Positions 7,208-23,933 of a stretch of 32,000 bases of DNA are shown in pieces. The position numbers and the translations under genes are program-made. This stretch comes from Allgaiera indica (GTDB taxonomy: Bacteria; Pseudomonadota; Alphaproteobacteria; Rhodobacterales; Rhodobacteraceae): the NCBI RefSeq assembly GCF_900106675.1, contig NZ_FNOB01000025.1:14645-46644 (forward strand). The letters run 5' to 3'. How positions within the stretch are numbered: the stretch's first letter is position 1; each line of letters starts with the position of its first letter. The notes under the pieces were generated by a model. The model saw only the letters and a program-made list of their open reading frames with translations, was not told the origin of the DNA and made no database searches.

Positions 7208-7265
7208 GGGGTTTTCCTCGGCACTCTCCAACCCGCAACAAAAACTCAAGACAGGGAAGACGCAG

Positions 7266-8414: not shown

Positions 8415-8417
8415 GCG

Positions 8418-8443
8418 CGGGGCGGGGTCGCCCGGCGGCCCCG
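8418..8443 (+). other. GC-rich intercistronic stem-loop just after the binding-protein gene
   Basis: CGGGGC(8418-8423)...GCCCCG(8438-8443) with an inner GGG/CCC pairing. There is no clean U-tract (TCCTTC). Confidence 0.35.
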
Positions 8444-8466
8444 TCCTTCAATACAGGAGACGGCGC

Positions 8467-9300
8467 ATGACGCTTGTCCTCGACATCATCACGACCGCGG
8501 CCATCCTGTTCATCATCGCGACCGGGTTGCTGACCATTTTCGGCGTGCTGAAGATCATCAATTTCGCCCATGGCGCCTGGCTGACGGTGGGGGCCTATTG
8601 TGCCGTCGCGGTTGGCGATCTGGGCTGGAACCCCTGGTTGGCGCTGCCGGTGGCCTTCGTCACCGGCGCGGCGCTGGGCGGACTGACCGAGCGGTTCATC
8701 GTGCGTCCGCTCTATGCCCGGCCGCTGGACGCGATCCTTGCGACCTGGGGTCTGGGGATCATCATCGGCCAGCTCATCACGCTGGGGTTCGGGCGCGACG
8801 TGCAGTTCACCGCGGCACTGCTGCCCGGCACCGCCGATATCCTGGGCACCTCCTATTCGATCTACCGGCTGTTCGCCCTGGCTGCGGCGATCGCGATCGG
8901 GCTGGGCTTTTCGTGGCTGATGGAGGGCACGCGGCTGGGCCTTTCCGCGCGAGCGGTGATCATGAACGAGGCGCTGGCGCGGGCACTGGGCCTTGATACC
9001 CGGCGCATTCGCTGGGTGACCTTCATGATCGGCTGTGGGCTGGCGGCGCTGGCGGGCACGCTGCTGACGCCGCTGACCAGCGTCGATCCCAACATGGGCG
9101 TGGCCTGGCTGGTGGGATCCTTCATGCTGGTCATGGTGGCGGGGCAAAGCTTTGCCGCGCTGGCCCTGGCCTGCCTGCTGCTGGGCGGCGCGCAGGTGAT
9201 CGTGTCGACCTATGTCAGCCCGATCCTGGGGGGGATCACGGTGGCCGTGCTGGCCGCTATCGTGTTGCGCATTTCGCCGAAAGGGTTTTCCCGTGTCTGA
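8467..9300 (+). CDS. Branched-chain-amino-acid/amide ABC transporter permease (LivH-like)
   Basis: AGGAG lies upstream of ATG 8467. The product is a multi-pass hydrophobic protein of typical LivH length (277 aa). Confidence 0.8.
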   Translation: MTLVLDIITTAAILFIIATGLLTIFGVLKIINFAHGAWLTVGAYCAVAVGDLGWNPWLALPVAFVTGAALGGLTERFIVRPLYARPLDAILATWGLGIIIGQLITLGFGRDVQFTAALLPGTADILGTSYSIYRLFALAAAIAIGLGFSWLMEGTRLGLSARAVIMNEALARALGLDTRRIRWVTFMIGCGLAALAGTLLTPLTSVDPNMGVAWLVGSFMLVMVAGQSFAALALACLLLGGAQVIVSTYVSPILGGITVAVLAAIVLRISPKGFSRV

Positions 9301-11086
9301 CACCACGCTTGAAACCGCAACGGCGCCTGCCCGCCGCCGCCGGATGCGCCACCTGTGGATCCTGGCGCTGATCACGGCCGCGCTGGTGATCGCCGGCCCG
9401 CTGTTTCTGGATCGCTTCACCGTCAATGTGCTGACGCGCTCGATGACCTTCGCGATCCTCGCCGTCACCGTCGATCTGCTATGGGGCTTCACCGGCATCC
9501 TGACCTTCGGACAGGCCGCCTTCTTCGGTGCCGGCGCCTATGCGACGGCAATGGTCCTGACCCATCTGGGCAGCACTCCGGGGCTGATGGTGCTGGGGCT
9601 TGTGCTGTCGATCGGGCTTCCGGTTCTGCTGGCGGCCGCGGTGGGTTGGCTGACGTTCTACCCCGGCGCGTCCGATTTCTACGCGACGGTGATATCGCTG
9701 GTGGTGCCGATCGTGGTGACCCAACTGATCTATTCGGGCGGCACCTGGACCGGGTCGAGTTCCGGCCTGGTGGGCTATTTCGCGCTCGACCTCAGCCTTG
9801 GCGGGTATTTCCGGCTTGCCGGGCTCAGCCTGGTGGCGGTGGTCGTGGCGGCGCTGATCTTCGTGCGGTCGGACGCCGGCCGGGTGCTGACCGCGATCCG
9901 CGACAACGAAACGCGCTGCGCCTATCTCGGGATCAGCACCCAGAAGGTGAAGATCGCCCTGACGGCGGTCCTGGCCGGGGTGACCGGCTTTGCCGGGTTC
10001 ATCTACGCGAATTCCTCGGGCGTGGTGGCGCCCGAGAACGCGGGCTTCGTCTTCGGCACGCAACTGGTCGTCTGGACCGCGCTGGGCGGGCGCGGCACAG
10101 TGATCGGCCCGGCCCTCGGGGCGGTGGCGATCGACTATCTCAGCGCGCAGCTGTCCGGCCAGATGCCGTTTCTGTGGCAGTTGGTGATCGGCACGCTGTT
10201 CGTGGTGATGATCATCTTCATGCCCAACGGGCTGGCGGCGCTGGCCACCGGCTGGCGCCGGATGCGGCGGCCCGCGGATGGCGTGTCGCCCGAACTGGTG
10301 GCGCTGCCGCCGCGCGCCGGACGGGGCGGGCCCGCGGGCGCAGAACCGCTTTTGCAGATCGAGAAGCTGGAGAAATCCTACGGCAGCCAGAAGGTGCTGG
10401 AGGATATCACGCTGGAGGTCCGGCGCGGCGAACTGGTCAGCCTGGTCGGCCCGAACGGCGCCGGCAAGACCACGCTGATGCGCTGCATGACCGATGGCAA
10501 GGTCGCCAGCGGCGGTAGCGTACGCATCCATGGCACCGGCATCCACGGCATGGTCCCCGACCAGATCGTCGCGTGCGGCATCGGGCGCAAGTTCCAGGTG
10601 GCCTCGGTTTTCGACAGCCTGACCGTGGCCGAATGCCTGCGCATGGCCCGCGTCTCGCACGAGTCGCCCAGCTTCCTGCGCAGCGCCGACAGCCTTTCGC
10701 TGCCGCAGGCCGCGATCGAGATCCTGCGGCTGACCGGCCTTGACCAGCATCTGGGGCGCGAGGTTTCGTTGCTGTCGCACGGGCAGAAGCAAAGCCTGGA
10801 ACTGGCGATGGTGGTCTCGCTGGAGCCGGAGCTGATCCTGCTGGACGAGCCGACAGCCGGCCTGACGGCGGCCGAGCGCGCGACCATCGGTAAGGTTTTG
10901 GTACGGCTGACATCCGAACTGGGCCTGGCCGCGATCCTGGTCGAGCATGATCTGGATTTCGTGCGCGACATCTCCAGCCGGATCGTGGTGCTGCATCAGG
11001 GCCGGCTGGTGCTGGACGGTACCGTCGAGGAGGTGGTCAATGACGAGATCGTCAAGCGGATCTATTCAGGAGGCGATCATGTCTGA
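9293..11086 (+). CDS. Fused LivM-like permease / LivG-like ATP-binding protein
   Basis: GTG at 9293 overlaps the upstream stop. An alternative ATG is at 9344. The N-terminal ~330 aa are hydrophobic and permease-like. The C-terminal half has Walker A (GPNGAGKTT), a signature-like LSHGQKQ, and Walker B (LILLDEPTAG). Confidence 0.8.
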   Translation: MSDTTLETATAPARRRRMRHLWILALITAALVIAGPLFLDRFTVNVLTRSMTFAILAVTVDLLWGFTGILTFGQAAFFGAGAYATAMVLTHLGSTPGLMVLGLVLSIGLPVLLAAAVGWLTFYPGASDFYATVISLVVPIVVTQLIYSGGTWTGSSSGLVGYFALDLSLGGYFRLAGLSLVAVVVAALIFVRSDAGRVLTAIRDNETRCAYLGISTQKVKIALTAVLAGVTGFAGFIYANSSGVVAPENAGFVFGTQLVVWTALGGRGTVIGPALGAVAIDYLSAQLSGQMPFLWQLVIGTLFVVMIIFMPNGLAALATGWRRMRRPADGVSPELVALPPRAGRGGPAGAEPLLQIEKLEKSYGSQKVLEDITLEVRRGELVSLVGPNGAGKTTLMRCMTDGKVASGGSVRIHGTGIHGMVPDQIVACGIGRKFQVASVFDSLTVAECLRMARVSHESPSFLRSADSLSLPQAAIEILRLTGLDQHLGREVSLLSHGQKQSLELAMVVSLEPELILLDEPTAGLTAAERATIGKVLVRLTSELGLAAILVEHDLDFVRDISSRIVVLHQGRLVLDGTVEEVVNDEIVKRIYSGGDHV

Positions 11087-11801
11087 CCCGGCCCCCGCCG
11101 ACACGGCGGTGCTGTCGCTCGACGGCGTGACCAGCGGCTATGGCCCGATTTCCGTCCTGCAAGGTGTTTCGCTTGCCATTCGGCCCGGCGAGATCTTCGC
11201 GCTGATGGGCAAGAACGGCATGGGCAAGACCACCTTGCTGAAGACCATCCTGGGCGCGATCCGCGCGCGGGGCGGGCGCATCGACTATCGGGGCCGCCCG
11301 ATCCTGGGCGCCGATCCGCGCGCCCTGGTCGAGTCCGGCATCGCCTATGCGCCGCAGGATCAGCCGCTGTTTCAGGACATCTCGATCCGCGACAACCTGC
11401 GTCTTGCGCTGCAGGGCGATCGGCAGCTTGGCGCGGCGCTGGATCGCGTCTATGGGCATTTCCCCTTCCTGCGCGACCGGCTGGGCCAGAAGGCCGGCAC
11501 CCTGTCGGGGGGCGAGCAGAAGATGCTGATCATCGCGCGCGCGCTCATGATGCAGCCCAAGCTGCTGCTGATCGACGAAATCTCGGAAGGGCTGCAGCCG
11601 ACGGTGGTGGCACGCATCGCCCAGGCGCTGCGGCAGGAACGCGAGAGCCGAGGCACCACGATCCTGCTGGTCGAGCAGAACCTGCGTTTTGCCCTTGATG
11701 TGGCGGATCGCTGGGCGGTGCTGAAGCTTGGGGCGATCGAGGATGCGGGCGCGGTGGATGACGGGGCGCATGACAGGATCCTGCGCCATCTGCAGATTTG
11801 A
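11079..11801 (+). CDS. ABC transporter ATP-binding protein (LivF-like)
   Basis: ATG at 11079 follows AGGAGG and overlaps the previous stop by 8 nt. Motifs are GKNGMGKTT, LSGGEQKML and LLLIDEISEGL. Confidence 0.85.
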   Translation: MSDPAPADTAVLSLDGVTSGYGPISVLQGVSLAIRPGEIFALMGKNGMGKTTLLKTILGAIRARGGRIDYRGRPILGADPRALVESGIAYAPQDQPLFQDISIRDNLRLALQGDRQLGAALDRVYGHFPFLRDRLGQKAGTLSGGEQKMLIIARALMMQPKLLLIDEISEGLQPTVVARIAQALRQERESRGTTILLVEQNLRFALDVADRWAVLKLGAIEDAGAVDDGAHDRILRHLQI

Positions 11802-12025
11802 AGGTGGCTGCGTGGATAGATCGGTTCCGCAATGTCTTGGCCGGCTCGGCGTCGGGGCTGCCACCGCCGGATCGCGATGTGCGCCGGCGCCGGGCGCTTT
11901 CTCCAACCAGGAACCTCTGGCGCCGACCGGGCAAGGGCATCGATCCTACCTTCGCCGGTGCTTGCGGATCGCCCCGCCCTGCCTATTCTCAAACTATCTG
12001 CACTCAAACCCCGAAGGAGTCTCTC

Positions 12026-13342
12026 ATGCCGGATGGTAGCAACACACCGTCGCGTCGTAGCGTCGTCGTCTCGGAATTCACCAATAGTGTGCTTGACCCG
12101 AAGGCACCAATGCTGGGCCCGGTCGAGAATGGCGGCACGATCATCGCCAATACCGCGCCCGGGTGCTGGGGGCCGATGATCACGCCGCGCCTGCGCGGCG
12201 GCCACGAGGTGACGCAACCGGTCTTTGTCGAAGGCGCCGAGATCGGCGATGGGGTCGCGATCCGCATCCGCGACATCACTGTGACCTCGATCGCGACCGC
12301 CTCGGGCCATGACAGCTCTCCCGAGGGGTTTTGCGTCGGTGACCCCTATGTCGCCGCGCGCTGCCCGGTCTGCGACACGGTCTGGCCCGAAACCCATGTC
12401 GAGGGCATCGGCCAGGACGCGGTGAAATGCGATGTCTGCGGCAATGCCGTAAAACCCTTCGAGATCGTGCATGGCTATACCGTCACCTTCGACGATACCC
12501 GCGCCGTCGGCCTGACGCTGCCGAAGGAGGCCGCCGAAACCATCGCGCAGCAAGCCGATCATTATTCGGCCCTGCCGGACAACAGCCGCCAGCATTCGAT
12601 CCTGACCTATGCGCCCTCGGGGATGCCGGGCACGCTGGTGCGGATGCGGCCGTTCATGGGGCAGCTTGGCACCTGCCCGTCGATTGCGATGCCCGACAGC
12701 CACAACGCCGGCGATTTTGGCGCCTTCCTCGTCGGCGCGCCGCATAATTACGGCATCACCGCCGAGCAACTGGCCGAACACAAGACCGACGGCCACATGG
12801 ATATCGACGCCGTGCGCGCCGGTGCGATCCTGGTCGCGCCGGTCAAGGTGCCCGGCGCCGGGATCTACATGGGCGACATGCACGCGGGCCAGGGCGATGG
12901 CGAGATCGCCGGCCATACGATGGATGTGTCGGGAAGCGTGACGCTGCAGGTAGAGGTCGTGAAGAACTACCTGCTGGACGGCCCCGTGCTGTTCCCGCTG
13001 GAAGAGGATCTTCCGCCGATGGCCCGGCCCTTCACCGCGGCAGAGATGGCCAAGGGCGCTAAGCTTGCGTCAAAATGGGGCGTGTCCGGGATCGAACCGC
13101 TTGCCCCGATCTCGGTGATCGGCACCGCGGCCAACCTCAACGACGCGATCGAGAACGGGCTTGCGCGTGCGGCCAAGCTGCTGGACATGACCGTCGCCGA
13201 GGTGCGCAATCGCGCCACGATCAACGGCGCGATCGAGATCGGACGCGCCCCCGGGGTGATCCAGGTCACCTTCCTTGCGCCGTTGGCCAGGCTGGATGCC
13301 GTCGGCCTTGGTTCCTATGCGCGTGAGCAATATGGACTCTGA
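12026..13342 (+). CDS. Acetamidase/formamidase (FmdA/AmdA) family amidohydrolase
   Basis: ATG at 12026 with AAGGAG upstream. The track ORF's upstream 76 codons look non-coding. FmdA_AmdA-like blocks are present (GPVEVEGAEPGD-like PVFVEGAEIGDGVAIRI, GDMHAGQGDGEIAG). An embedded CPVC...CDVC motif is also present. Confidence 0.75.
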   Translation: MPDGSNTPSRRSVVVSEFTNSVLDPKAPMLGPVENGGTIIANTAPGCWGPMITPRLRGGHEVTQPVFVEGAEIGDGVAIRIRDITVTSIATASGHDSSPEGFCVGDPYVAARCPVCDTVWPETHVEGIGQDAVKCDVCGNAVKPFEIVHGYTVTFDDTRAVGLTLPKEAAETIAQQADHYSALPDNSRQHSILTYAPSGMPGTLVRMRPFMGQLGTCPSIAMPDSHNAGDFGAFLVGAPHNYGITAEQLAEHKTDGHMDIDAVRAGAILVAPVKVPGAGIYMGDMHAGQGDGEIAGHTMDVSGSVTLQVEVVKNYLLDGPVLFPLEEDLPPMARPFTAAEMAKGAKLASKWGVSGIEPLAPISVIGTAANLNDAIENGLARAAKLLDMTVAEVRNRATINGAIEIGRAPGVIQVTFLAPLARLDAVGLGSYAREQYGL

Positions 13343-13556: not shown

Positions 13557-13954
13557 TCAGACGCTTTCGGCCAGACATTCCACAAGACGCGGCAGCACGA
13601 CATCTCGTCAGCCCGGCCCCATGTTGTCGAAGGCGAAACGATGCTTCGGATTGGACAGGTCGAACCCGTGATGTTCCGGCCGTAGCACGCAGCCCTCGGC
13701 GGTCGGCGTGATTGTCCAGCGCAGGTCGAAATCCCCGAAGGTGAAGGGCAGGGGCCGGCCGGGGGCGACCTCGGTCACGCGGCAGGGAATCGCGCCCCAG
13801 CGGTCCATCTGCATGACGAATTCATGGCCCTCGATCGGGCGATGTCGCCGGGACGCCACCAGCTGGCGATCCCCGCGGGGGTCGAAATGCGCTGCCACAC
13901 CCGCGCGGGCGAGGCCTTGATGGGCTGTTCGATCACGATGCTTTGCGGTGTCAT
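13557..13954 (-). pseudogene. SRPBCC/AHSA1-family gene disrupted by a frameshift and an in-frame TGA
   Basis: The N-terminus (MTPQSIVIEQPIKASPARVWQRISTPAGIASWWRPGDIA) is in one frame, starting at ATG 13954. The family-like continuation (PIEGHEFVMQMDRWGAIPCRVTEV...FAFDNMGPG) is in another frame, with the switch near the CCC run at 13837-13839. TGA at 13608-13610 sits where Trp is expected (GPGW). The same frame then reads RDVVLPRLVECLAESV to TGA at 13557-13559. Confidence 0.65.
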
Positions 13955-14298
13955 TCCGTATTCTCCTCGATCTGTCCGGCAAGATCGGACATGCGCGCCT
14001 TCCAACAGGCCTCGGACGGTTTCAGCCAACTTCGCAATTCGCGCAGGGGTTCGGCGTTGAGCGCATAGATGCGCTCGCGGCCGGATTTGGTTTCCCGCAC
14101 GAGGTCGGCATTGCGCAAGACCGCAAGGTGTTCGGACACGGACGAGTGGCTGATCTTGAATTCCTGCGCGATCGCGCCCACGGACGCGCCGCGGCCCGCA
14201 ATGCGCGGATCCGGCAGTTTCGCCTTGGCCGGAAAGATCGCGGGTGCTTGGGCTTGCGGACGCGGGACGGTGTGGCCATAATATGGGTGACGAGTCAC
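13951..14298 (-). CDS. ArsR/SmtB-family winged-helix regulator (start uncertain, possibly degenerate)
   Basis: The HTH region is SVGAIAQEFKISHSSVSEHLAVLRNADLVRETKSGRERIYAL. The stop overlaps the SRPBCC ATG (ATGA at 13951-13954). The only nearby in-frame start is GTG at 14298, inside the palindrome. The ATG at 14412 would overlap tetR. Confidence 0.6.
   Translation of the reverse strand: MTRHPYYGHTVPRPQAQAPAIFPAKAKLPDPRIAGRGASVGAIAQEFKISHSSVSEHLAVLRNADLVRETKSGRERIYALNAEPLRELRSWLKPSEACWKARMSDLAGQIEENTE
14254..14282 (+). promoter_or_regulatory. Candidate sigma70-type promoter of the tetR operon
   Basis: TTGCGG (14254-14259), a 17-nt spacer, then CATAAT (14277-14282). The -10 element overlaps the palindromic operator. 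Confidence 0.4.
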
Positions 14299-14305
14299 CC
14301 ATATT
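14280..14305. promoter_or_regulatory. Near-perfect palindromic operator in the arsR/tetR divergent region
   Basis: ATATGGGTGAC-GA-GTCACCCATAT (14281-14304) has 11-bp perfect arms, extendable by one A/T pair to 14280-14305. It ends 9 nt before the tetR ATG. Confidence 0.65.
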
Positions 14306-14314
14306 GGTACCGAA

Positions 14315-14926
14315 ATGGCGAATGTAAGCAAGAAGACCCGAGACGCGACCCGCAAGCGCCTGCTGGCGACCGGCGCCGCGCATCTGGCGCGCGACGGACT
14401 GGAGCGCGCCAATGTCGACGCGATCGCGGTTGCGGCGGGCTATGCGAAGGGCACCTTCTACAATTACTTCGACAGCAAGGAGGCGATGTTCGGCGCGGTG
14501 ATCGCGGAATGGGCGGCTCGGGCGACGGAGATCGAGGCAGAGGCCGATCGCGCCTCGGCCGGGGTCCGCCTGCGCCTGACCGCGCTGGCCGAAGCCGATG
14601 TGCGCGTGGTGCGTGAAAACGAGGACTTCGCCAAGGTCGTGATCCGCGAGGTGCTGGCGTTCCGGCCCGAAACCTATCCGATGGTGATCGCGCAGCTGGA
14701 CCCGTTCGTGGCCAAGGTGGAACAGGTGCTGCACGATGGCGTCGCCGCGGGCGAGATCCGCGACGAGCCTTCGGTGACGCAGCAGGCGATGATGTTCACC
14801 GGGTTGCTCGCGCTTTCATATGTCCAGCATTGGGGCAGCGGCGGCGCCTGGCCCGCGCTGGACGAGGTGCCGGCAATGGTGGTGGGCGTGTTTCTGGACG
14901 GCGCCGCGATGCGGGGCGGGCCATGA
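14315..14926 (+). CDS. TetR/AcrR-family transcriptional regulator
   Basis: The N-terminal HTH is TRKRLLATGAAHLARDGLERANVDAIAVAAGYAKGTFYNYFDSKEAMF. At 203 aa the length is typical. Confidence 0.9.
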   Translation: MANVSKKTRDATRKRLLATGAAHLARDGLERANVDAIAVAAGYAKGTFYNYFDSKEAMFGAVIAEWAARATEIEAEADRASAGVRLRLTALAEADVRVVRENEDFAKVVIREVLAFRPETYPMVIAQLDPFVAKVEQVLHDGVAAGEIRDEPSVTQQAMMFTGLLALSYVQHWGSGGAWPALDEVPAMVVGVFLDGAAMRGGP

Positions 14927-15576
14927 GCAGCTTCGTCTGGATGAAGGTGCTGGAATCGACGCCCGAGCGTTACGACCGCGGCATCGCGATGCTCAGCGGC
15001 GGCCGGATCGCACAGGTCTACGGGCGCATCGCCGCGATCGCCGCCGCGCCCGGGCGGCGGGTGCTCGACATCGGCTGCGGCACGGGCGCGGTCTCCTTCG
15101 CCTGCGCAGAGCGCGGGGCGCTGGTGACCGGCATCGACATCAATGCCGAAATGCTGGAGGTCGCGCGCGCCAAGCCGGTCCCCGAGGGCGGGACGATCGC
15201 CTTCCTTCAGCTTGCGGCGGCCGAGATCGAGGACCGTTTCGAGAAGACGAGCCTCGACGCCGTGGTGTCGTGCCTGGCGTTCTCCGAAATGTCGGAAGAG
15301 GAACAGGATTACGCCCTGGAAATCGCGCGTCGGCGGCTGGTGCCCGGGGGCGTGATCGTGATCGCGGACGAGGCCGCGCCGGCGACGCCCCTGGGTCGCC
15401 TGCTGCACCGCCTGCGCCGGCTTCCGGTGGTGCTGGCGACCTATCTGTTGACCCAGACAAGCACCCGGCCGGTGACGGGCCTGGCCGGGCGGATGCGGGC
15501 CGCGGGTTTTGTCGATGTTTCGCAAGAGCGGATGCTGTCGGACGCGTTCGTGATCGTACGGGGGACGCGGCCGTGA
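14923..15576 (+). CDS. Class I SAM-dependent methyltransferase (Methyltransf_11/25-like, UbiE-like N-terminus)
   Basis: ATG at 14923 overlaps the tetR stop (ATGA). Motif I is VLDIGCGTGAVS. There is an acidic post-I residue (TGIDIN) and motif LVPGGVIVI. Confidence 0.85.
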   Translation: MSSFVWMKVLESTPERYDRGIAMLSGGRIAQVYGRIAAIAAAPGRRVLDIGCGTGAVSFACAERGALVTGIDINAEMLEVARAKPVPEGGTIAFLQLAAAEIEDRFEKTSLDAVVSCLAFSEMSEEEQDYALEIARRRLVPGGVIVIADEAAPATPLGRLLHRLRRLPVVLATYLLTQTSTRPVTGLAGRMRAAGFVDVSQERMLSDAFVIVRGTRP

Positions 15577-16685
15577 AGCTTTCCGATCTTCCGGGCTATC
15601 TGCGCGACACCGCCTTCCGCCTTCTGCCCCACCGGGCACGCACCGGGCTGTTCCCGATCGGCGATCCCGGCCCCGATGCGCCGGTCCTGGTGACCGGCAA
15701 TTTCACCCTGACGGTGCGCCGGCTGCGCGAGGCGCTTGCCGGCCAGGCCGCCTGGGTGCTTGTGGTGAATTCGAAAGGGTACAACGTGTGGTGCGCGGCG
15801 GGTGGCGGACACCTCACGCATCACGACGTGATCTCGGCGATGCGCGTGACGCATCTGGCCGACAAGGTCCGCCGTCGAGAGGTGATCCTGCCGCAGTTGG
15901 CCGCAACCGGGGTGGAACGCCGCGCGATCTCCGCCGCCACCGGGTTCGCCACCCGCTGGGGCCCGGCCAGGCTGGAGGATCTTCCGGCGTTCCTTGGGCG
16001 CGGATCGCGGGTGTTCAACGCCGAACGCTTCATGCGCTTCCCCGCCTGGGAGCGCCAGGAAATGGCGGCGATATGGTATGTCCCGGCGCTGATCGTCCTG
16101 GCGCCGGCGATCTGGCTGATGCTTGGCCCGGCGGCGGCGCTGGCTGCGGCCTTCGCCCTGGTCTCGATGGTCGCCGCGCTTTTCGCGATGCTGCCCCGGT
16201 TCAACCCGGTCGGGCCCAGGCGGCTGCCGATCCTGCTGGGCTTCGGTCTGGCCGGGGCGCTGGCCGGCTGGGGTTTGCTGGCCGCCATGGGCGACGCCAT
16301 GCCGTGGACGCTGGTCGTGGTCGGCGCGACCAACCTGATCGGCACGGGGCTTTTGTTCATGGATCTCGCGGGCACCACGCCATGGTACCCCAGCGTGATC
16401 AACACCGGCGCGAACCCTGCGACGATCACGCTGGATGAGGCGCGCTGCGACGGATCGGGCGATTGCGTGATGGTCTGCCCGCGACAGGTGCTGAAGATGA
16501 ACGGATCGCGGCGCAAGGTGGAAATCCGCGATCCCGGCCAGTGCATCCAATGTGGTGCCTGCATCGTGCAATGCCCAAGGGATGCCCTTCTGTTCCATTA
16601 TGCCGATGGCAGCACGGTCGAGGCGCCCACCATCCGCAACACCCGTCTGAACATGCTGGGCAAGCGCCGAGAGGTTCGCCGCTAG
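15573..16685 (+). CDS. Fused HgcA-like corrinoid-binding/membrane domain plus HgcB-like 2x[4Fe-4S] ferredoxin domain (HgcAB-like fusion protein); substrate unknown
   Basis: GTG at 15573 overlaps the methyltransferase stop (GTGA). The region PVLVTGNFTLTVRRLREALAGQAAWVLVVNSKGYNVWCAAGGGH resembles the HgcA cap-helix region (N(V/I)WCA(A/G)GK), and ILPQLAATGV and ARLEDLPAFL blocks follow. Four hydrophobic helices span aa ~165-266. The ferredoxin motifs are CDGSGDCVMVCP and CIQCGACIVQCP. Confidence 0.8.
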   Translation: MKLSDLPGYLRDTAFRLLPHRARTGLFPIGDPGPDAPVLVTGNFTLTVRRLREALAGQAAWVLVVNSKGYNVWCAAGGGHLTHHDVISAMRVTHLADKVRRREVILPQLAATGVERRAISAATGFATRWGPARLEDLPAFLGRGSRVFNAERFMRFPAWERQEMAAIWYVPALIVLAPAIWLMLGPAAALAAAFALVSMVAALFAMLPRFNPVGPRRLPILLGFGLAGALAGWGLLAAMGDAMPWTLVVVGATNLIGTGLLFMDLAGTTPWYPSVINTGANPATITLDEARCDGSGDCVMVCPRQVLKMNGSRRKVEIRDPGQCIQCGACIVQCPRDALLFHYADGSTVEAPTIRNTRLNMLGKRREVRR

Positions 16686-16838: not shown

Positions 16839-16873
16839 CCTTGACCCAAAGTCGGCAACATATTGGGTATCGG

Positions 16874-17698
16874 GTGCACTATCGCACAATATTTATCTCC
16901 GACACGCATCTTGGCAGCCGCGGCTGCCAGGCGGACATGCTGTTGGACTTTCTTCGCCAGCATGACGCGGACACGATCTTTCTGGTCGGAGATATCGTCG
17001 ACACCTGGCAATTGCGTCGGGGCTGGTTCTGGCCGCAGACCCATAACGACGTGGTTCAGGAACTGCTTTCCAAGGCCCAGTCCGGCGCGAGAGTGATCTA
17101 TATTCCGGGCAACCACGACGAGGGCCTCCGATCTTATCTTGGGACCCATTTCGGGGGGATCGAGGTCAAGAAGTCGGCCGAGCATGTCGCCGCGGACGGG
17201 CGGCGCCTGCTTGTCACCCATGGCGATCAGTTCGACGCGATCGTCGTTCACGCCAAATGGCTGGCCCATCTCGGGGACCGGGCCTACGACTTCGCATTGT
17301 GGCTCAATATCTGGGTGAACCGCTTTCGCCGGATCTGGGGCGGTTCCTACTGGTCCTTGGCGAACTGGGCCAAGGGACGGGTGAAATCGGCGGTCAACTT
17401 CATCGGGGAATACGAGAAGGTGCTGGCCGGCGAAGCCCGGCGCGGGCGCTTCGACGGGGTCGTGTGCGGACATATCCACCGCGCCAACATCCGCGATATC
17501 GACGGCATCCGATACGTCAATTGCGGGGACTGGACCGAAAGCTGCACCGCGGCCGCCGAGCGCGAGGATGGATCGCTGTTTCTCATCGACTGGGCCGCGG
17601 CCAAGCGGCGCCGCCGGATGATCGAGGATCTTCGCGCGGGACGGCCCCTGCCAGAGGCCCTGCGCGCGCGGCGCAAGAGGAAGAAGGAACTCGCCTGA
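16874..17698 (+). CDS. plcP: PlcP-type metallophosphoesterase (LpxH-like fold), a phosphate-starvation phospholipase C
   Basis: GTG at 16874 gives VHYRTIFISDTHLG. Calcineurin-like motifs are DTH, GDIVD, GNHDE, HGD and GHIH. The call to PlcP rather than LpxH rests on its position directly upstream of btaA/btaB. Confidence 0.7.
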   Translation: MHYRTIFISDTHLGSRGCQADMLLDFLRQHDADTIFLVGDIVDTWQLRRGWFWPQTHNDVVQELLSKAQSGARVIYIPGNHDEGLRSYLGTHFGGIEVKKSAEHVAADGRRLLVTHGDQFDAIVVHAKWLAHLGDRAYDFALWLNIWVNRFRRIWGGSYWSLANWAKGRVKSAVNFIGEYEKVLAGEARRGRFDGVVCGHIHRANIRDIDGIRYVNCGDWTESCTAAAEREDGSLFLIDWAAAKRRRRMIEDLRAGRPLPEALRARRKRKKELA

Positions 17699-17701
17699 GC
17701 C

Positions 17702-18925
17702 ATGACCGGCATTCCCAACGTCAGCGATCAACTCCGCTCTGCCGTTCAGCAAAATGCCGCGTTCAGCGCGACGGGGCTGCTGGAACGTCTGTTCTCGCGG
17801 CTCTTCCATGGCCTCGTCTATCCCCAGATCTGGGAGGATCCGGTGGCCGATCTGGCGGCTTTGCAGATCGGTCCGCAAGACAACATCGTCTGCATCGCCT
17901 CGGGCGGCTGCAACGTGATGTCCTATCTCACGGCCGATCCGGCCTCGATCACCGCCGTCGACCTTTCGCCCGCGCATGTCGCGCTGGGCCGGTTGAAGCT
18001 GGCGGCGGCGCAACATCTCGATGCGCAGGGGTTCTTCGACTTCTTCGGCCGCGCCGACCGCGCCGGCAATGTCGCGGTCTATGACCGCCGGATCGCGCCG
18101 CATCTCGATCCGGTCACGCGCGCCTATTGGGATGCGCGCCCCTATGTCCGCCGCCGCATCGCCATGTTCGGCCGGGGTTTCTACCGCTTCGGCCTGCTTG
18201 GCCGCTTCCTAGGTGCGCTTCGGGCGGTGGCGCGGCTTGCCGGCGTCGATTTCCGCCGCTTCGCGACCTGCGCGACGCTCGACGACCAGCGGCGGTTCTT
18301 CGACGCGCGCATCGCCCCGCTTTTCGACGCGCCGGCAATCCGCTTCCTTGCGCGAAGCCGCGCCGCGCTGTTCGGCCTGGGCATCCCGCCCGCGCAATAC
18401 GACAAGCTGGAGGCCGACGGCGGTGGCGACATTCTTCCCGTGCTGCGGGATAGGGCGCGCAAGCTTCTGTGTGGCTTTCCGCTGTCGGAAAACTACTTCG
18501 CGCGGCAGGCGCTGACCCGGTCTTACGCGGCGGCCGAGGCCGGCTCGGTGCCGCCCTATCTGGACGCGGCCGCATTCCCGGCGCTGCGGCGCAATGCCGG
18601 GCGCGTTCGGGTGCTGAACCGGTCGCTTACCGATCTGCTGGCCGAAATGCCGGCCAGCCAGACCCAGGCTTATGTCCTGCTCGATGCGCAGGACTGGATG
18701 ACCGACGAACAGCTCAACGCGCTCTGGCATCAGATCACCCGCACCGCGGCCCCCGGCGCGCGGCTGATCTTTCGCACCGGGGGCGCGGCGGATATCCTGC
18801 CCGGCCGCGTGTCCACGACGCTGCTTGCGACCTGGCGCCGCGATGACGAGGCATCCGCGAAAGGCTTCGCGGCGGATCGCTCGGCGATCTACGGCGGCTT
18901 CCACTGCTACCGGCAGATCGGCTGA
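17702..18925 (+). CDS. btaA: BtaA, S-adenosylmethionine:diacylglycerol 3-amino-3-carboxypropyl transferase (DUF3419 family)
   Basis: The DUF3419/BtaA signature block is GLVYPQIWEDPVADLAALQIGPQDNIVCIASGGCNVMSYL...AVDLSPAHVALGRLKLAAA. It starts 3 nt after the plcP stop. Confidence 0.8.
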   Translation: MTGIPNVSDQLRSAVQQNAAFSATGLLERLFSRLFHGLVYPQIWEDPVADLAALQIGPQDNIVCIASGGCNVMSYLTADPASITAVDLSPAHVALGRLKLAAAQHLDAQGFFDFFGRADRAGNVAVYDRRIAPHLDPVTRAYWDARPYVRRRIAMFGRGFYRFGLLGRFLGALRAVARLAGVDFRRFATCATLDDQRRFFDARIAPLFDAPAIRFLARSRAALFGLGIPPAQYDKLEADGGGDILPVLRDRARKLLCGFPLSENYFARQALTRSYAAAEAGSVPPYLDAAAFPALRRNAGRVRVLNRSLTDLLAEMPASQTQAYVLLDAQDWMTDEQLNALWHQITRTAAPGARLIFRTGGAADILPGRVSTTLLATWRRDDEASAKGFAADRSAIYGGFHCYRQIG

Positions 18926-18928
18926 GCC

Positions 18929-19582
18929 GTGGAAGAAAGCACGCTTTCCCACGCCGCGCTGATGGATGCGACCTACCGCTATCAGCGGCTGTTCTACGAC
19001 GCGACGCGGCGCTATTACCTGCTTGGCCGAGACCGGCTGATCCGCACACTCGATCCGCCCGCCCGCGCCCATATACTGGAAGTCGCCTGCGGCACGGGCC
19101 GCAATCTTGACCGGATCGCCGCGCGCTATCCCGGGCGCGGGCTTTACGGGCTCGACATCTCGGAACAGATGCTGCGCTCGGCCCGGGCGAAGCTTGCCGG
19201 CCGGGCGGTGCTGGCGCGGGCGGATGCGCGTGACTTCGATCCGGGGGCGCTCTTTGGTCGGTGCCAGTTCGACCGGATCGTGTTTTCCTACAGCCTGTCG
19301 ATGATCCCCGACTGGGAAGAGAGCTTGCGCCACGCGCTGCCGTATCTCGCCCCGGGCGGAGAACTGCACATCGTCGATTTCGGCGGGCAGCGCCGGCTCC
19401 CCGCGTGGTTCGGGGCCGGGCTGCGCGCCTGGCTTGCGCGTTTTCACGTCGCGCCAAGGGATGATCTTGCCGAGGCCGCGGCCCGGATCGCGGCCGAGGC
19501 CGATTGCCGCGCAATTTCGGAAAGCCTCTTTCGCGACTATTGCCAGCATCTTGTCATCCGCCGCCCCGGACCGGCTGACTGA
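18929..19582 (+). CDS. btaB: BtaB, diacylglycerylhomoserine N-methyltransferase
   Basis: GTG at 18929 has the same junction, CTGAGCC(A/G)TG, as plcP/btaA. SAM motif I is ILEVACGTGRNL. The length of about 217 aa and the position after btaA fit BtaB. Confidence 0.75.
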   Translation: MEESTLSHAALMDATYRYQRLFYDATRRYYLLGRDRLIRTLDPPARAHILEVACGTGRNLDRIAARYPGRGLYGLDISEQMLRSARAKLAGRAVLARADARDFDPGALFGRCQFDRIVFSYSLSMIPDWEESLRHALPYLAPGGELHIVDFGGQRRLPAWFGAGLRAWLARFHVAPRDDLAEAAARIAAEADCRAISESLFRDYCQHLVIRRPGPAD

Positions 19583-19694
19583 CCCAGGCCGCAGGCGCGC
19601 GGACATGCCCCTGTCACGCTTTTCGACCGCCGGGGCCCGCATGGTCGCGGGGTCCTGGCGGTGCGCGGAAGTCGCCGGGCCGGGGATCTGATCC

Positions 19695-19739
19695 GTATCA
19701 TCACAATATGGTAACTCATACATCACTGGCGCGTTACAA
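19695..19739 (+). promoter_or_regulatory. AT-rich candidate promoter/PhoB region upstream of phnC
   Basis: Three degenerate 7-mers occur at exact 11-bp phasing: GTATCAT (19695), ATATGGT (19706) and CATACAT (19717). A TACAAG-like -10 follows. The segment is an isolated AT-rich island in GC-rich DNA. Confidence 0.3.
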
Positions 19740-19775
19740 GCGCCGCCTACATCGGACGCCAAGAAGGAGCGTGCG

Positions 19776-20597
19776 ATGCGGTTGGAATTCAGGAACGTCA
19801 GCAAGACCTTCGGCCTCAAGGCGGCTGTGGATGACGTCAGCTTCGCATTGGACGGGGCGGGTTTCGTTGGCGTCATAGGGCGATCCGGCGCGGGCAAGTC
19901 GACGCTTTTGCGCATGATCAATCGCCTCGGCGACGCCACCCGCGGACAGATCCTGGTGGACGGCACCGATATCCTGTCGCTTGGCGGGAAGGCCAAGCGC
20001 GCCTGGCAGGCGAATTGCGCGATGATCTTCCAGCAGTTCAACCTGGTGCCGCGGATGGATGTGGCCTCGAACGTGCTGCACGGGCTTCTGGGGCAGCGCG
20101 CGACCCTTGCGACCATCTTCAATCTTTGGCGGGCAGAGGATATCCGCCGCGCGCTGGCGATCCTGGACCGGCTCGGCATCGCCGAACAGGCCGCCAAGCG
20201 CGCCGAGGCGCTTTCCGGCGGCCAGCAGCAGCGCGTCGCGATCGCCCGGGCGCTGATGCAGGATCCGCGGATCATCCTGGCCGACGAGCCGATCGCGTCG
20301 CTCGATCCGATGAACGCGCAGCTGGTGATGGACGCCCTCAAGCGCATCCAGGTGGAAGATGGCCGCATGGTCATCGCCAATCTGCACACGCTCGACACCG
20401 CGCGGCGCTATTGCGACCGGGTGATCGGGATGCGCGACGGGCGCGTCGTCTTCGACGGCCGGCCGGATCTGCTGACGACCAGCGTCGCGCGCGACATCTA
20501 CGGCGCCGACGCGAACTTCACCGAAGACATGACCTCGACCGCGATCGAAGAGCGCGACGAAGACATCCGATACGCGGCCGTCCTGGTGGGCGGCTGA
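19776..20597 (+). CDS. phnC: Phosphonate ABC transporter ATP-binding protein
   Basis: AAGGAG lies upstream. Motifs are [24 protein letters not shown] and [12 protein letters not shown]. The PhnC-typical QQFNLV block is present. Confidence 0.85.
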
Positions 20598-20655
20598 GTA
20601 ACCACCGGCCGAGGCCCAACCTTCGCCCCGGCTTCATCACGATTGGGAGAGAACC

Positions 20656-21567
20656 ATGAAGAACCTGCCCGCGATCCTGGCCGCGTCCACCATGCTTGCC
20701 GGTGCCGCCTCGGCCCAGGAAATCAATCACTTCAACATCGGCATCCTCGGTGGTGAAAATGCGCAGAACCGCATCGCCAACAACCAATGCCTCGTCAAGC
20801 AGATGGAGGCCGCGCTCGGCGTGCCGGTGAAGCTGTTCACCCCGGCCGACTATGACGGCGTGCTGCAGGGGCTGATGGGCGGCACCATCGACTTCGCGAT
20901 CCTCGGCGCCTCGGGCTACGCCAAGATCGCGATCGACGATCCGCAGGCCGTGACGCCCTTTGGCACCACCGCGAACCCCGACGGCTCATACGTCTATTAC
21001 TCGATCGGTTTCGCCCGCAAGGATCACGACATCCATTCGCTCAAGGACATGAAGGGCAAGACCTTCGGCTTCGGCGATCCGAACTCGACCTCGGGCTATC
21101 TGATCCCCTCGATCGAGATCCCCAAGCAGACCGGCCATTCGATGAAGTCGGGCGACTATTTCGGCACCGTCAAGTTCACCGGCGGGCATGAGCAGACCGT
21201 GCTGGCCGTCTATAACGGCGATCTTGACGCCGGCGTGACCTGGGCCGACGGCCAGGGTGCCTGGGAAGACGGCTTCAATAACGGCCAGCTGCGCAAATCG
21301 GTGGACGCGGGCCAGATCGACATGAACCAACTGGTCGAGATCTGGCGCTCGAAGCCGATCCCGAACGGGCCGCTGGTGATCCGCAACGCGCTGCCCGCCG
21401 ACGTCAAGGCGAAGGCCGAGAAGGTTCTGCTCGACCTCAAGAAGACCGACCCGGACTGCCAGTACAACGTGGCGGGCGGCGATTCGGCCGGCTTCGTCAA
21501 GATCGACCCCAGCTATTACGACACTATCATCGAGGTGCGTAAGGCGAAGATGAAGCAGGGGTCGTAA
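20656..21567 (+). CDS. phnD: Phosphonate/phosphite ABC transporter substrate-binding protein
   Basis: The signal peptide is MKNLPAILAASTMLAGAASA. The PhnD-like block is FGFGDPNSTSGYLIP. Confidence 0.85.
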   Translation: MKNLPAILAASTMLAGAASAQEINHFNIGILGGENAQNRIANNQCLVKQMEAALGVPVKLFTPADYDGVLQGLMGGTIDFAILGASGYAKIAIDDPQAVTPFGTTANPDGSYVYYSIGFARKDHDIHSLKDMKGKTFGFGDPNSTSGYLIPSIEIPKQTGHSMKSGDYFGTVKFTGGHEQTVLAVYNGDLDAGVTWADGQGAWEDGFNNGQLRKSVDAGQIDMNQLVEIWRSKPIPNGPLVIRNALPADVKAKAEKVLLDLKKTDPDCQYNVAGGDSAGFVKIDPSYYDTIIEVRKAKMKQGS

Positions 21568-21582
21568 CCTCGACACCCGCGC

Positions 21583-21609
21583 GGGCCGGCGGCGCGAACG
21601 CCCCGGCCC
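21583..21609 (+). other. GC-rich intercistronic stem-loop after phnD
   Basis: GGGCCGG(21583-21589)...CCGGCCC(21603-21609) with a 13-nt loop and no U-tract. Confidence 0.3.
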
Positions 21610-21645
21610 GTGCCTTCCTTCCCGCCACCACCAGGCAAGGCCCCG

Positions 21646-23852: not shown

Positions 23853-23933
23853 CGCGATTGGCCGAATGCCGCGGGGGCAAGCCGGCCCGCGCGGCTGTGG
23901 CCCGGCGCCGCAAGGATGGCGTGAAGGCCCCCG

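Follow-up and report, generated by a model that had tools for sequence, protein, structure and literature searches.

HgcAB is the only enzyme known to make methylmercury, and its fused paralogue is usually dropped from surveys as a non-methylating look-alike. Purified HgcAB draws its methyl group from SAM via a Cys-ligated methylcob(III)alamin, its Fe-S clusters reduce the cobalt, and C73 and the C-terminal C94/C95 pair of HgcB appear crucial for mercury methylation (PMC11588087). The fused form has been reported since 2015 (Podar 2015; Gilmour 2018; Lin 2023), and has been noted in the aerobic alphaproteobacterium Breoghania sp. L-A4 (PMC10083202). Two organisms with fused HgcAB have been assayed and neither produced MeHg (PMC4646819; PMC5893877), as a sequence-only reading of the locus described here had correctly stated.

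That reading knew of no description of an operon that pairs such a fusion with a SAM methyltransferase under a TetR regulator. However, two NCBIfam families name exactly this pair: NF043039, "HgcAB-like fusion protein", and NF043040, "corrinoid protein-associated methyltransferase CpaM", which is graded a 'hypothetical equivalog' and takes its name from genomic context only. Since both protein families were already named, the claim to novelty was overstated. We found no mention of CpaM in the literature searched.

The operon and its products

The window, by which we mean the whole 32,000-nt stretch of DNA that was analysed, comes from a member of the Rhodobacterales, in keeping with the alphaproteobacterial host proposed from the letters alone. 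It contains a three-gene operon, tetR, cpaM and an hgcAB-like fusion gene, in that order and all on the + strand, which encodes a repressor, a SAM methyltransferase and a membrane-bound corrinoid/Fe-S protein related to HgcAB. The genes are chained by two 4-nt overlaps (Table 1), and when the sequence was re-read all of the genes, overlaps and coordinates first proposed were found to be present. GC3 is 0.84-0.88 across the three frames, which is coding-like and in line with the host. U879_03690 of Defluviimonas sp. 20V17 has the same sequence as the fusion protein (100% identity). The segment from 14279 to 16669, which runs from the operator to near the stop codon of the fusion gene, is alone homologous to a related Defluviimonas MAG, whilst the flanks on either side differ between the two. 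The locus appears to be a compact cassette that has spread between lineages.

Table 1. Positions (in the window) of the genes, protein domains, motifs and candidate regulatory elements of the cassette
Feature	Position	Strand	Evidence or detail
Possible promoter	14254..14281	+	TTGCGG 14254-14259, 16-nt spacer, CATAAT 14276-14281; read by eye
Candidate TetR operator, 26-bp palindrome AATATGGGTGAC-GA-GTCACCCATATT	14280..14305	.	ends 9 nt before tetR ATG
tetR, TetR-family repressor, 203 aa	14315-14926	+	PF00440 TetR_N 45.2 bits (cutoff 24); TetR_C_24 37.5 bits (cutoff 26.4)
tetR stop/cpaM start overlap	14923-14926		ATGA
cpaM, class I SAM methyltransferase, 217 aa	14923-15576	+	NF043040 274.1 bits (cutoff 180)
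cpaM stop/fusion start overlap	15573-15576		GTGA
hgcAB-like fusion gene, 370 aa, GTG start	15573-16685	+	NF043039 HgcAB_like 369.7 bits (cutoff 285)
Corrinoid-binding (CdhD/CFeSP-like) domain, residues 19-133	15627..15971	+	PF03599 49 bits
Cap-helix region KGYNVWCAAGGGHLTHHD	15774..15827	+	Cys74 codon 15792-15794
Membrane domain, four TM helices (residues 158-184, 186-210, 214-239, 244-264)	16044..16364	+	AF2, pLDDT 78-96
Ferredoxin-like domain	16419..16601	+	Fer4 families, residues 285-339 (Pfam)
Ferredoxin motif I, CDGSGDCVMVCP	16446-16481		C292-x5-C298-x3-C302-P; Ser replaces second Cys
Ferredoxin motif II, CIQCGACIVQCP	16542-16577		C324-x2-C327-x2-C330-x3-C334-P

The tetR product comprises an N-terminal TetR HTH and a C-terminal ligand domain (Pfam). 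No NCBIfam equivalog scored above its cutoff, and we found no characterised close relative; the best PDB and NCBIfam matches, at ~44 and 42 bits, respectively, are uninformative.

CpaM aligns through residues 3-215 with positions 1-215 of the 216 in the NF043040 profile, matches Methyltransf_25 in Pfam (70 bits) and carries the SAM motif LDIGCGTG. Its AF2 model (pLDDT 83) adopts a Rossmann fold for which the closest solved structure is of the Coq5/UbiE type (TM 0.77), and the GenBank label of this copy is UbiE. Judged by motif and modelled fold, the SAM-binding region is of the class I type; the ~217-aa class I SAM methyltransferase of the sequence-only reading holds. The copy here shows no difference from the CpaM of NF043040: it scores above the cutoff and adjoins a corrinoid protein, as the family name implies. 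The closest folds are those of small-molecule C-, O- and N-methyltransferases (Coq5/UbiE) and not of known corrinoid methylases, an observation that speaks against the methyl-transfer mechanism proposed below.

The fusion protein and its described relatives

Residues 10-339 of the fusion protein align with positions 4-349 of the 350 in NF043039, with which it shares a common layout of a CFeSP-like corrinoid domain with a cap-helix Cys, membrane helices and a C-terminal ferredoxin. A Foldseek search with the whole protein ranks the computed model of HgcAB, 9a0b_A, first (E 7e-12) and large subunits of CFeSP next; the corrinoid domain by itself matches 2ycl, 4c1n, 2h9a and 4djd (prob 1.0, rmsd ~2.3 Å over ~130 residues). 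W73, C74 and A75 do not vary among the 26 sequences compared, the WC pair is found in all 80 homologs, and a family-specific motif, G(H/Y)(L/F)THHD, follows the cap helix. By analogy, Cys74 is predicted to be the lower axial ligand of the cobalt. The HgcA-type cap helix with its conserved Cys, the N-terminal corrinoid domain (CdhD and NF043039 matches) and the four transmembrane helices (AF2, residues 158-264), all of which had been proposed from the letters alone, were each confirmed, although AF2 has low confidence in the cap-helix segment and in the linker to the ferredoxin domain. Because the number of helices is even, both soluble domains should lie on one side of the membrane.

The C-terminal region had been described as a two-cluster ferredoxin. 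The ferredoxin domain stands, but it is not of the plain two-[4Fe-4S] type, as it has seven cluster cysteines and not eight. The second position of motif I was never a Cys in the 79 homologs that match the pattern (1/80 did not match), and neither the fusion protein nor any of the 79 homologs has a Cys beyond motif II. By analogy with 7Fe ferredoxins, the domain is predicted to hold one [3Fe-4S] and one [4Fe-4S] cluster. Compared with its NF043039 relatives, the clade here has seven cluster cysteines and a longer C-terminal tail, whereas distant members, including triple fusions, have eight. We found no published description of the seven-cysteine pattern in this clade, nor of a clade that lacks both the Lys of HgcA and the C-terminal cysteines of HgcB.

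The nearest described proteins are HgcA and HgcB of Pseudodesulfovibrio mercurii ND132, whose corrinoid and membrane domains are homologous to those of the fusion (31% identity to 9a0b_A over 300 columns). The two systems have in common a Cys-type cap helix, a ferredoxin partner and SAM as the likely methyl source (PMC11588087). They differ in that the fusion is a single chain with four modelled helices, compared with five for HgcA in the literature, and has a dedicated class I methyltransferase partner and a TetR regulator in place of an ArsR-like one; moreover, its family is found mostly in lineages known as aerobic soil and marine heterotrophs, unlike HgcAB.

Profile searches, which the sequence-only reading had called for, returned CdhD at 49 bits and placed the protein below the cutoffs of both true families: 154.8 bits for HgcA (NF040863; cutoff 275, with true HgcA representatives at 300-334) and 54.5 bits for HgcB (NF040864; cutoff 99). 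The cap motif of true HgcA is N(V/I)WC(A/S)(A/G/S)GK under the Hg-MATE high-stringency rule (PMC10087281); the fusion reads NVWCAAGG, and a GK ending is absent from all 80 homologs. HgcB has two complete CxxCxxCxxxCP motifs, the first of which is incomplete in the fusion (CDGSGDCVMVCP), and its extra cysteines, C73 and C94/C95, have no counterpart.

The CFeSP large subunit (AcsC/CdhE) of the Wood-Ljungdahl pathway shares the fold of the B12-binding domain (Pfam CdhD, Foldseek). Against its profile the fusion scores only 57.4 bits (cutoff 306), with positions 321-443 of 450 aligned; the similarity is thus confined to ~120 residues at the C-terminal end of CFeSP, and nothing matches its N-terminal [4Fe-4S] and TIM-barrel parts. 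No CFeSP small-subunit partner and no MeTr/ACS genes were found in the neighbourhood of the cassette. Membership of the reductive dehalogenases (RdhA) was also rejected, as there is no dehalogenase family among the Pfam matches at E<=1. In the reactivation of cobalamin-dependent methionine synthase, electron input (from flavodoxin) and SAM together turn the cobalt into methyl-Co(III). The logic is alike, but the resemblance is in possible working and not in membership: the methionine synthase domains are unrelated, and the fusion is membrane-bound with neither a homocysteine nor a folate module.

Conservation of the cassette and its candidate operator

In 78 of the 80 loci compared, cpaM lies directly upstream of the fusion gene on the same strand. 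These loci span Alpha-, Gamma- and Deltaproteobacteria/Myxococcota, Actinomycetota, Gemmatimonadota, Acidobacteriota, Planctomycetota, Thermoplasmata and Bathyarchaeia, and ~54 of the 78 keep the 4-nt overlap. At one locus (L055), the 928 nt upstream of the fusion gene contain no cpaM. Across the 80 loci, no other neighbour is conserved around the fusion gene. Furthermore, a CpaM-like domain is fused to the N-terminus of an HgcA(B)-like protein in 18 of the 150 best 50%-identity representatives; in the five of these single chains that were checked, both NCBIfam models scored above cutoff. For cpaM and the fusion gene, the survey of co-occurrence suggested by the sequence-only reading came out in its favour, and the adjacency, the lack of any other conserved neighbour and the single-chain fusions agree with its view of a self-contained module. 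We found no published description of cpaM directly upstream of the fusion in 78/80 loci, or of natural CpaM-HgcA(B)-like single chains.

The fused family has been called rare in the literature. In contrast, 469 GTDB species genomes encode a relative, and 425 50%-identity clusters score E<=1e-30. Soil MAGs, of lineages generally considered aerobic, make up most of the species-level genomes concerned. The fused paralogue is common, being present in hundreds of species-level genomes, is nearly always paired with or fused to a SAM methyltransferase, and often has its own repressor and operator.

Orthologs of tetR (E 1e-41 to 1e-106) are found directly upstream of cpaM in 29 loci, archaea included. 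Because 41 of the 70 informative loci lack the gene and only 29 have it, we regard it as an optional part of the module. The candidate operator pairs at 12 of 13 positions between its arms, and its core, TGGGTGACNNGTCACCCA, occurs once in the window compared with 0.10 copies expected by chance. Eighteen other loci carry the exact core just 5′ of tetR, further ones, including a Thermoplasmata locus (L049), have degenerate copies there, and the core is absent from every TetR-less locus searched. No published description was found of a TetR gene and the same operator core recurring in 29 loci that include archaea. As had been proposed, TetR has a candidate operator of its own, conserved across phyla, in the minority of loci that carry the gene. 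The TTGCGG/CATAAT pair, whose -10-like hexamer overlaps the left operator arm, is a possible promoter for the operon; it was not called by a consensus scanner.

Proposed function and its alternatives

We consider that the cassette encodes a membrane-anchored, SAM- and corrinoid-dependent methyl-transfer enzyme with its own repressor, for which Hg(II) is unlikely to be the acceptor, and put the probability of this reading at roughly 0.55. TetR would bind the 26-bp palindrome over the -10-like hexamer and repress the operon until a ligand, probably organic, releases it. Translational coupling would then yield CpaM and the fusion protein in fixed proportion, complexed at the cytoplasmic face of the membrane. 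The seven-cysteine ferredoxin domain, with its predicted [3Fe-4S] and [4Fe-4S] clusters, would feed electrons to the cobalt to give Co(I). CpaM may offer a SAM-binding site from which the methyl group passes to Co(I), forming methyl-Co(III) with the Cys74 thiolate as the lower ligand, as in true HgcAB. The methyl would then depart, as the equivalent of a radical or carbanion, for an acceptor bound at the four-helix membrane domain or close to it. We infer these roles of CpaM and of the corrinoid, ferredoxin and membrane parts by analogy.

The sequence-only reading had contrasted the operon with HgcAB on the grounds that the latter has no dedicated methyltransferase partner. That contrast needs updating, given that purified HgcAB uses SAM directly (PMC11588087), which makes a SAM-binding partner here more plausible. 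By the same token, since true HgcAB uses SAM without a partner (PMC11588087), the corrinoid might be loaded without CpaM, whose own target could then be the substrate or the product. The absence of TetR from 41 of 70 informative loci, the L055 locus without cpaM, and the low AF2 confidence in the cap-helix segment and the ferredoxin linker also weigh against the reading we favour. As a tentative and rather doubtful extension, the cassette could be a relative of the mercury methylase that tolerates oxygen, with a dedicated SAM enzyme and Cys-ligated cobalamin that together reverse the polarity of the SAM methyl and deliver it as a radical or carbanion equivalent to an electrophile (a non-Hg metal(loid) or an organic molecule sensed by TetR) in aerobic soil and marine bacteria and archaea.

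CpaM might alternatively serve only in reductive reactivation, as SAM and flavodoxin do for methionine synthase, converting inactive Co(II) to methyl-Co(III), with the catalytic methyl coming from elsewhere and the corrinoid protein acting as a methyl shuttle or demethylase. An Fe-S electron-input domain, a SAM enzyme and a corrinoid domain are the parts that reductive methylation needs, Co(I) would often oxidise in an aerobic host, and the tight coupling or fusion of CpaM suits a partner in maintenance no less than one in catalysis. However, the neighbourhood of the cassette has no conserved second methyltransferase (MtaA/MtrH/MeTr-like) and HgcAB itself uses SAM catalytically (PMC11588087), and we consider this explanation unlikely.

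Reductive dehalogenases have a similar general layout of corrinoid, two Fe-S clusters and membrane anchoring, and TetR repressors usually sense organic molecules. Both points favour Co(I) nucleophile or reductive chemistry, for example halomethane dehalogenation, over methyl donation, with CpaM as an accessory, as does a 2026 preprint which reports that heterologously expressed HgcAB dechlorinates CCl4 and trihalomethanes (10.64898/2026.04.26.720869). The preprint concerns true HgcAB, though, and has not been through peer review; no dehalogenase family came up in the Pfam scan (E<=1), and the SAM methyltransferase would be left unexplained as an invariant, repeatedly fused partner. We therefore think such chemistry quite improbable here.

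That the fusion is a genuine mercury methylase working in an aerobe, an orthologue of HgcAB by function, is very improbable. Homology to HgcA/HgcB and the conserved cap-helix Cys speak for it, and the negative assay of P. furiosus does not exclude catalytic competence, according to its authors (PMC4646819). Against it are scores far under the equivalog cutoffs (154.8 vs 275 for HgcA; 54.5 vs 99 for HgcB), a GG cap motif where GK is required by the Hg-MATE high-stringency rule (PMC10087281), the lack of any Cys beyond motif II, in the stretch that contains C73 and C94/C95 in HgcB (PMC11588087), the failure of either assayed organism with fused HgcAB to produce MeHg (PMC4646819; PMC5893877), and a regulator that is TetR-type and not a metal sensor. 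The comparative data already refute a chance adjacency of three functionally unrelated genes, for which the absence of TetR from many loci is the sole argument: cpaM adjoins the fusion gene in 78/80 loci from bacterial as well as archaeal phyla, and there are conserved 4-nt overlaps, natural fusions and a conserved operator.

The locus supplies three genes as one defined unit, from the named strain Defluviimonas sp. 20V17, that is open to expression, de-repression and assay; the genus Defluviimonas is described as aerobic. As SAM was recently shown to be the methyl donor of HgcAB, a separate CpaM may reveal at which site, and in what way, SAM reaches the corrinoid. The GG/GK cap difference, the seven-cysteine pattern and the cpaM neighbour are simple survey markers that separate the fused family from true hgcAB, and the substrate of the fused family could point to the ancestral function behind mercury methylation. 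Were the polarity-reversal proposal true, methylated metal(loid)s or unusual C-methylations would have a new enzymatic origin beyond anoxic habitats, and HgcAB chemistry would gain a tractable model.

Three overlapping genes, two of them from named families

The sequence-only reading had proposed that a TetR regulator, a class I SAM methyltransferase and a 370-aa HgcA/HgcB-like fusion protein are joined by 4-nt overlaps, and all three ORFs were found at the positions it had assigned, with a coding-type third-position GC. As read from the sequence, the tetR/cpaM overlap is ATGA (14923-14926) and the cpaM/fusion overlap is GTGA (15573-15576). All three frames show the coding signature of the genome, with third-position GC at 0.84-0.88, and do not differ from the neighbouring genes in this respect.

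Features of the cassette and its surroundings (positions along the window)
Feature	Position	Strand	Remarks
Amide-utilisation cluster	7158-13339		Peripla_BP_6-type ABC transporter, then acetamidase/formamidase (FmdA_AmdA, 176 bits)
SRPBCC/AHSA1-like gene, two pieces	13608-13982 and 13775-13960	-	downstream of the ArsR gene
ArsR-family gene	13951-14277	-
TetR operator (predicted)	14280-14305		26-bp palindrome AATATGGGTGAC-GA-GTCACCCATATT, between the upstream gene and tetR
tetR	14315-14926	+	203 aa; Pfam TetR_N and TetR_C_24
cpaM (class I methyltransferase)	14923-15576	+	217 aa; Pfam Methyltransf_25/11/31, UbiE-like match
Fusion gene	15573-16685	+	370 aa, GTG start; Pfam CdhD and 4Fe-4S families
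7.3-kb downstream block	16850-23930		calcineurin-like metallophosphoesterase, DUF3419 protein (354 bits), class I methyltransferase, phosphonate ABC transporter (ATPase and binding protein)

In NCBIfam, the methyltransferase belongs to NF043040, "corrinoid protein-associated methyltransferase CpaM" (274.1 bits versus a cutoff of 180), and its partner to NF043039, "HgcAB-like fusion protein" (369.7 versus 285). The pairing is therefore not undescribed, as had been supposed, since both members already carry names. In addition to NF043039, the fusion protein matches CdhD (residues 19-133, 49 bits; Pfam), but it lies below the equivalog cutoffs for HgcA (154.8 versus 275), HgcB (54.5 versus 99) and the CFeSP large subunit (57.4 versus 306). 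As a control, true HgcA representatives in a library-wide search scored 300-334 bits on the HgcA model and fell under the cutoff of the HgcAB-like model. The locus is a further member of a named, biochemically uncharacterised family; the hypothetical protein U879_03690 from Defluviimonas sp. 20V17 (Rhodobacterales, Paracoccaceae) has the same sequence as its fusion protein (100% identity). Two other proteins, P0366 and P0387, are single-chain HgcA-HgcB fusions that score above the cutoff for true HgcA (300 and 334 bits) and retain the GK cap motif; P0387 has a Cys-rich tail at its end (...SSCCSPCCGSKP). Neither belongs to the NF043039 family, so a protein that is "fused" need not be "HgcAB-like".

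Corrinoid, membrane and ferredoxin domains

The cap-helix peptide, KGYNVWCAAGGGHLTHHD, is encoded at 15774-15827, and its cysteine is present in 80/80 homologs, with DVWC instead of NVWC in five Actinomycetota loci. Immediately after this cysteine, residues 77-85 (15801-15827) carry the family motif G-G-G-(H/Y)-(L/F)-T-H-H-D, which includes two near-invariant histidines that could be alternative cobalt ligands or form a substrate or metal site. True HgcA differs here in having the cap motif GK (GK-G-T-F at the position of G-G-G-(H/Y)-(L/F)). The cap motif of the fusion protein also fails the Hg-MATE high-stringency rule (PMC10087281).

An AlphaFold2 model built with 26 homologs (pLDDT 76.7, pTM 0.71) has four long helices between residues 158 and 264, an arrangement that would place both soluble domains on one side of the membrane, where electrons would have to pass to cobalt. 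The top structural match of this model was the deposited computed model of HgcAB (9a0b_A; E 7e-12, 31% identity over 300 columns), followed by the B12 domains of CFeSP (2ycl, 4c1n, 2h9a, 4djd; rmsd ~2.3 Å). A sequence search of the PDB returned no solved HgcA, only CFeSP and ferredoxins.

The ferredoxin domain that had been claimed is present, with matches to 4Fe-4S families over residues 285-339, but its type had been described imprecisely, given that it has seven cluster cysteines and not eight (motif I, CDGSGDCVMVCP; motif II, CIQCGACIVQCP). All 79 homologs that matched the pattern (one of the 80 did not) have Ala, Ser, Val, Thr or another residue where motif I would have its second cysteine, and motif II is complete in 79/80. 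By analogy with 7Fe ferredoxins, we infer one [3Fe-4S] and one [4Fe-4S] cluster, a set that may reflect life with oxygen. The seven-cysteine pattern marks the clade closest to the window; farther out in the family, most members, the triple fusions among them, have eight cysteines and end soon after motif II. No cysteine follows motif II in 79/79 homologs, in contrast to HgcB, in which Hg methylation appears to depend critically on C73 and the C-terminal C94/C95 pair (PMC11588087).

The CpaM model is a confident Rossmann methyltransferase (pLDDT 83) whose nearest solved fold is of the Coq5/UbiE type (TM 0.77). Its N-terminus, MSSFVWMKVLE, and the segment around TYLLTQTTTRP are near-invariant, although the model has low confidence in just these parts, which is the pattern to be expected of a partner-binding surface. 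A profile search against 1.84 billion representatives at 50% identity yielded 3851 proteins at E<=1e-3, 957 at E<=1e-10 and 425 at E<=1e-30, and 18 of the best 150 representatives have a CpaM-like domain N-terminal to an HgcA(B)-like protein in one chain; named sources are Candidatus Ranarchaeia (Asgard archaea) and Anaerolineae. Five long fusions that we checked (582-644 aa) lie above both the NF043040 and NF043039 cutoffs, and four others (537-602 aa) combine the methyltransferase with a corrinoid/membrane protein that has no ferredoxin. Since fusion has occurred repeatedly, and in the same order as the genes, these chains argue strongly for CpaM and the corrinoid protein working together as a single enzyme. 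The search also contained a further HgcAB-like subclass of 450-540 aa (P0303, P0308, P0324-P0329, P0343, P0349, P0350, P0357 and others), with an N-terminal extension of ~120-210 residues, the cap motif N(I/V)WCSSLA and eight ferredoxin cysteines. The extension has no Pfam or NCBIfam match, and its hydrophobic appearance suggests extra membrane helices.

Operator, gene neighbourhood and cassette borders

A pattern scan in which each GTDB species was represented by one genome identified relatives in 469 genomes, and the best 80 loci were compared. Many are soil MAGs, and they span Alphaproteobacteria, Gammaproteobacteria, Myxococcota ("delta proteobacteria"), Actinomycetota, Gemmatimonadota, Acidobacteriota, Planctomycetota, Spirochaetaceae and Deinococcales, together with the archaeal Thermoplasmata and Bathyarchaeia. 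The expected co-occurrence held for two of the three genes: a cpaM ortholog lies directly 5′ of the fusion gene on the same strand in 78/80 loci, and the 4-nt overlap is retained in ~54 of the 78. One of the remaining two has no room upstream; the other, L055 (Myxococcales MAG, 1-928), is a true exception: alone among the informative loci, it has 928 nt of sequence 5′ of the fusion gene but no cpaM there. All-against-all clustering of flanking ORFs from the 80 loci gave no conserved partner beyond tetR, cpaM and the fusion gene.

The regulator is a less constant member than had been supposed; its predicted operator is conserved. A TetR ortholog (E 1e-41 to 1e-106) lies directly 5′ of cpaM in 29 loci, including three Thermoplasmata, but is absent from 41 others whose upstream sequence extends to 700 nt or more; eight loci are uninformative. 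The predicted palindrome ends 9 nt 5′ of the tetR ATG, and its core occurs once in the window (chance expectation 0.10). Among the 80 loci, the operator is present where TetR is present: the exact core, TGGGTGACNNGTCACCCA, lies just 5′ of tetR in 18 loci, and degenerate forms occur in further ones (for example ATATGGGTGACTGCTCACTCATAT in a Thermoplasmata locus, L049), and the core was never found in TetR-less loci. PDB and NCBIfam matches were uninformative about the TetR ligand, and a scan for consensus promoters and terminators gave nothing usable. Upstream genes vary in TetR-less loci; in four from Actinomycetota (L016, L018, L033, L041), a CRYCSYVHQEW-motif gene, which we tentatively read as AhpD/carboxymuconolactone-decarboxylase-like, lies ~100-250 nt 5′ of cpaM. 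The DVWC cap variant occurs in L016, L018 and L041, but not L033.

Homology to L025, a related Defluviimonas MAG locus, is limited to 14279-16669, a stretch that opens with the operator's first base and closes near the fusion stop. Based on these borders, the neighbour survey and the TetR distribution, the unit is operator-tetR-cpaM-fusion, with tetR and its operator as an optional front end. Because the cassette sits in differing genomic contexts in many phyla and both domains, its distribution suggests repeated transfer between lineages; a tblastn search of 72,556 plasmids gave 0 matches.

An ArsR-like regulator often accompanies true hgcAB (PMC7438021). We rejected the divergent ArsR gene as part of the cassette, given that L025 lacks the ArsR/SRPBCC pair and its homology begins exactly at the operator. 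By eye, the SRPBCC/AHSA1-like gene is split between two frames, with the N-terminal part (MTPQSIVIEQPIKASPARVWQRI...) in one and the C-terminal part (...FTFGDFDLRWTITPTAEGCVLRPEHHGF...) in another, pointing to a frameshift, a pseudogene or an error in sequencing; the two pieces had no Pfam match. The metallophosphoesterase, DUF3419, methyltransferase and phosphonate-transporter genes were likewise rejected as partners, since L025 lacks the whole 7.3-kb block, which is therefore an indel between close relatives. The block resembles a phosphate-starvation gene set, with betaine-lipid genes of the PlcP/BtaA/BtaB type and phosphonate uptake. L025 keeps the amide-utilisation cluster that lies immediately 5′ of the cassette region.

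Proposed chemistry and its rivals

Purified HgcAB takes its methyl group from SAM, not methyl-tetrahydrofolate, via Cys-ligated methylcob(III)alamin, and the two [4Fe-4S] clusters of HgcB reduce the cobalt (PMC11588087). The cassette itself has a defined list of tightly linked parts and a conserved operator, and the best-supported interpretation is a three-module enzyme, for which HgcAB suggests the order of steps. The ferredoxin domain would reduce cobalt, CpaM would bring SAM so that Co(I) is methylated, and methyl-Co(III), held by Cys74, would give its methyl group to an acceptor at the membrane domain, while TetR would hold the operon off until some ligand appears. For the parts and the roles they probably play, the sequence-only reading was largely right, though not about the novelty of the pairing.

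A rival to methyl transfer by CpaM is that it serves in reactivation only. HgcAB dechlorinates halomethanes, according to a 2026 preprint (10.64898/2026.04.26.720869). A second rival is that the fusion protein performs Co(I) reductive chemistry, such as dehalogenation. That the cassette is a true aerobic Hg methylase is unlikely, and so is Hg(II) as acceptor, because the protein falls below the HgcA and HgcB cutoffs and lacks the HgcB cysteines; its regulator is, moreover, of the TetR type, for which ligands are usually organic molecules.

The 2015 description of fused HgcAB called the family rare, and Pyrococcus furiosus made no methylated Hg (PMC4646819); neither did Methanococcoides methylutens methylate Hg (PMC5893877). 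Survey protocols advise that fused sequences be left out (PMC10087281). The fused proteins form a separate clade with a member in the aerobic alphaproteobacterium Breoghania sp. L-A4 (Lin et al., PMC10083202), on which we found no follow-up in the literature searched. That literature likewise contained no paper mentioning the name CpaM, none combining HgcA, a SAM-dependent methyltransferase, a corrinoid and aerobic life, and no description of the TetR/operator layer, the seven-cysteine pattern or the CpaM fusions.

The fusion family is far commoner than reported and adjoins the question of where Hg methylation came from and what its native function is. In the cassette, a cultured strain offers a unit of three genes that is well delimited and can be tested.
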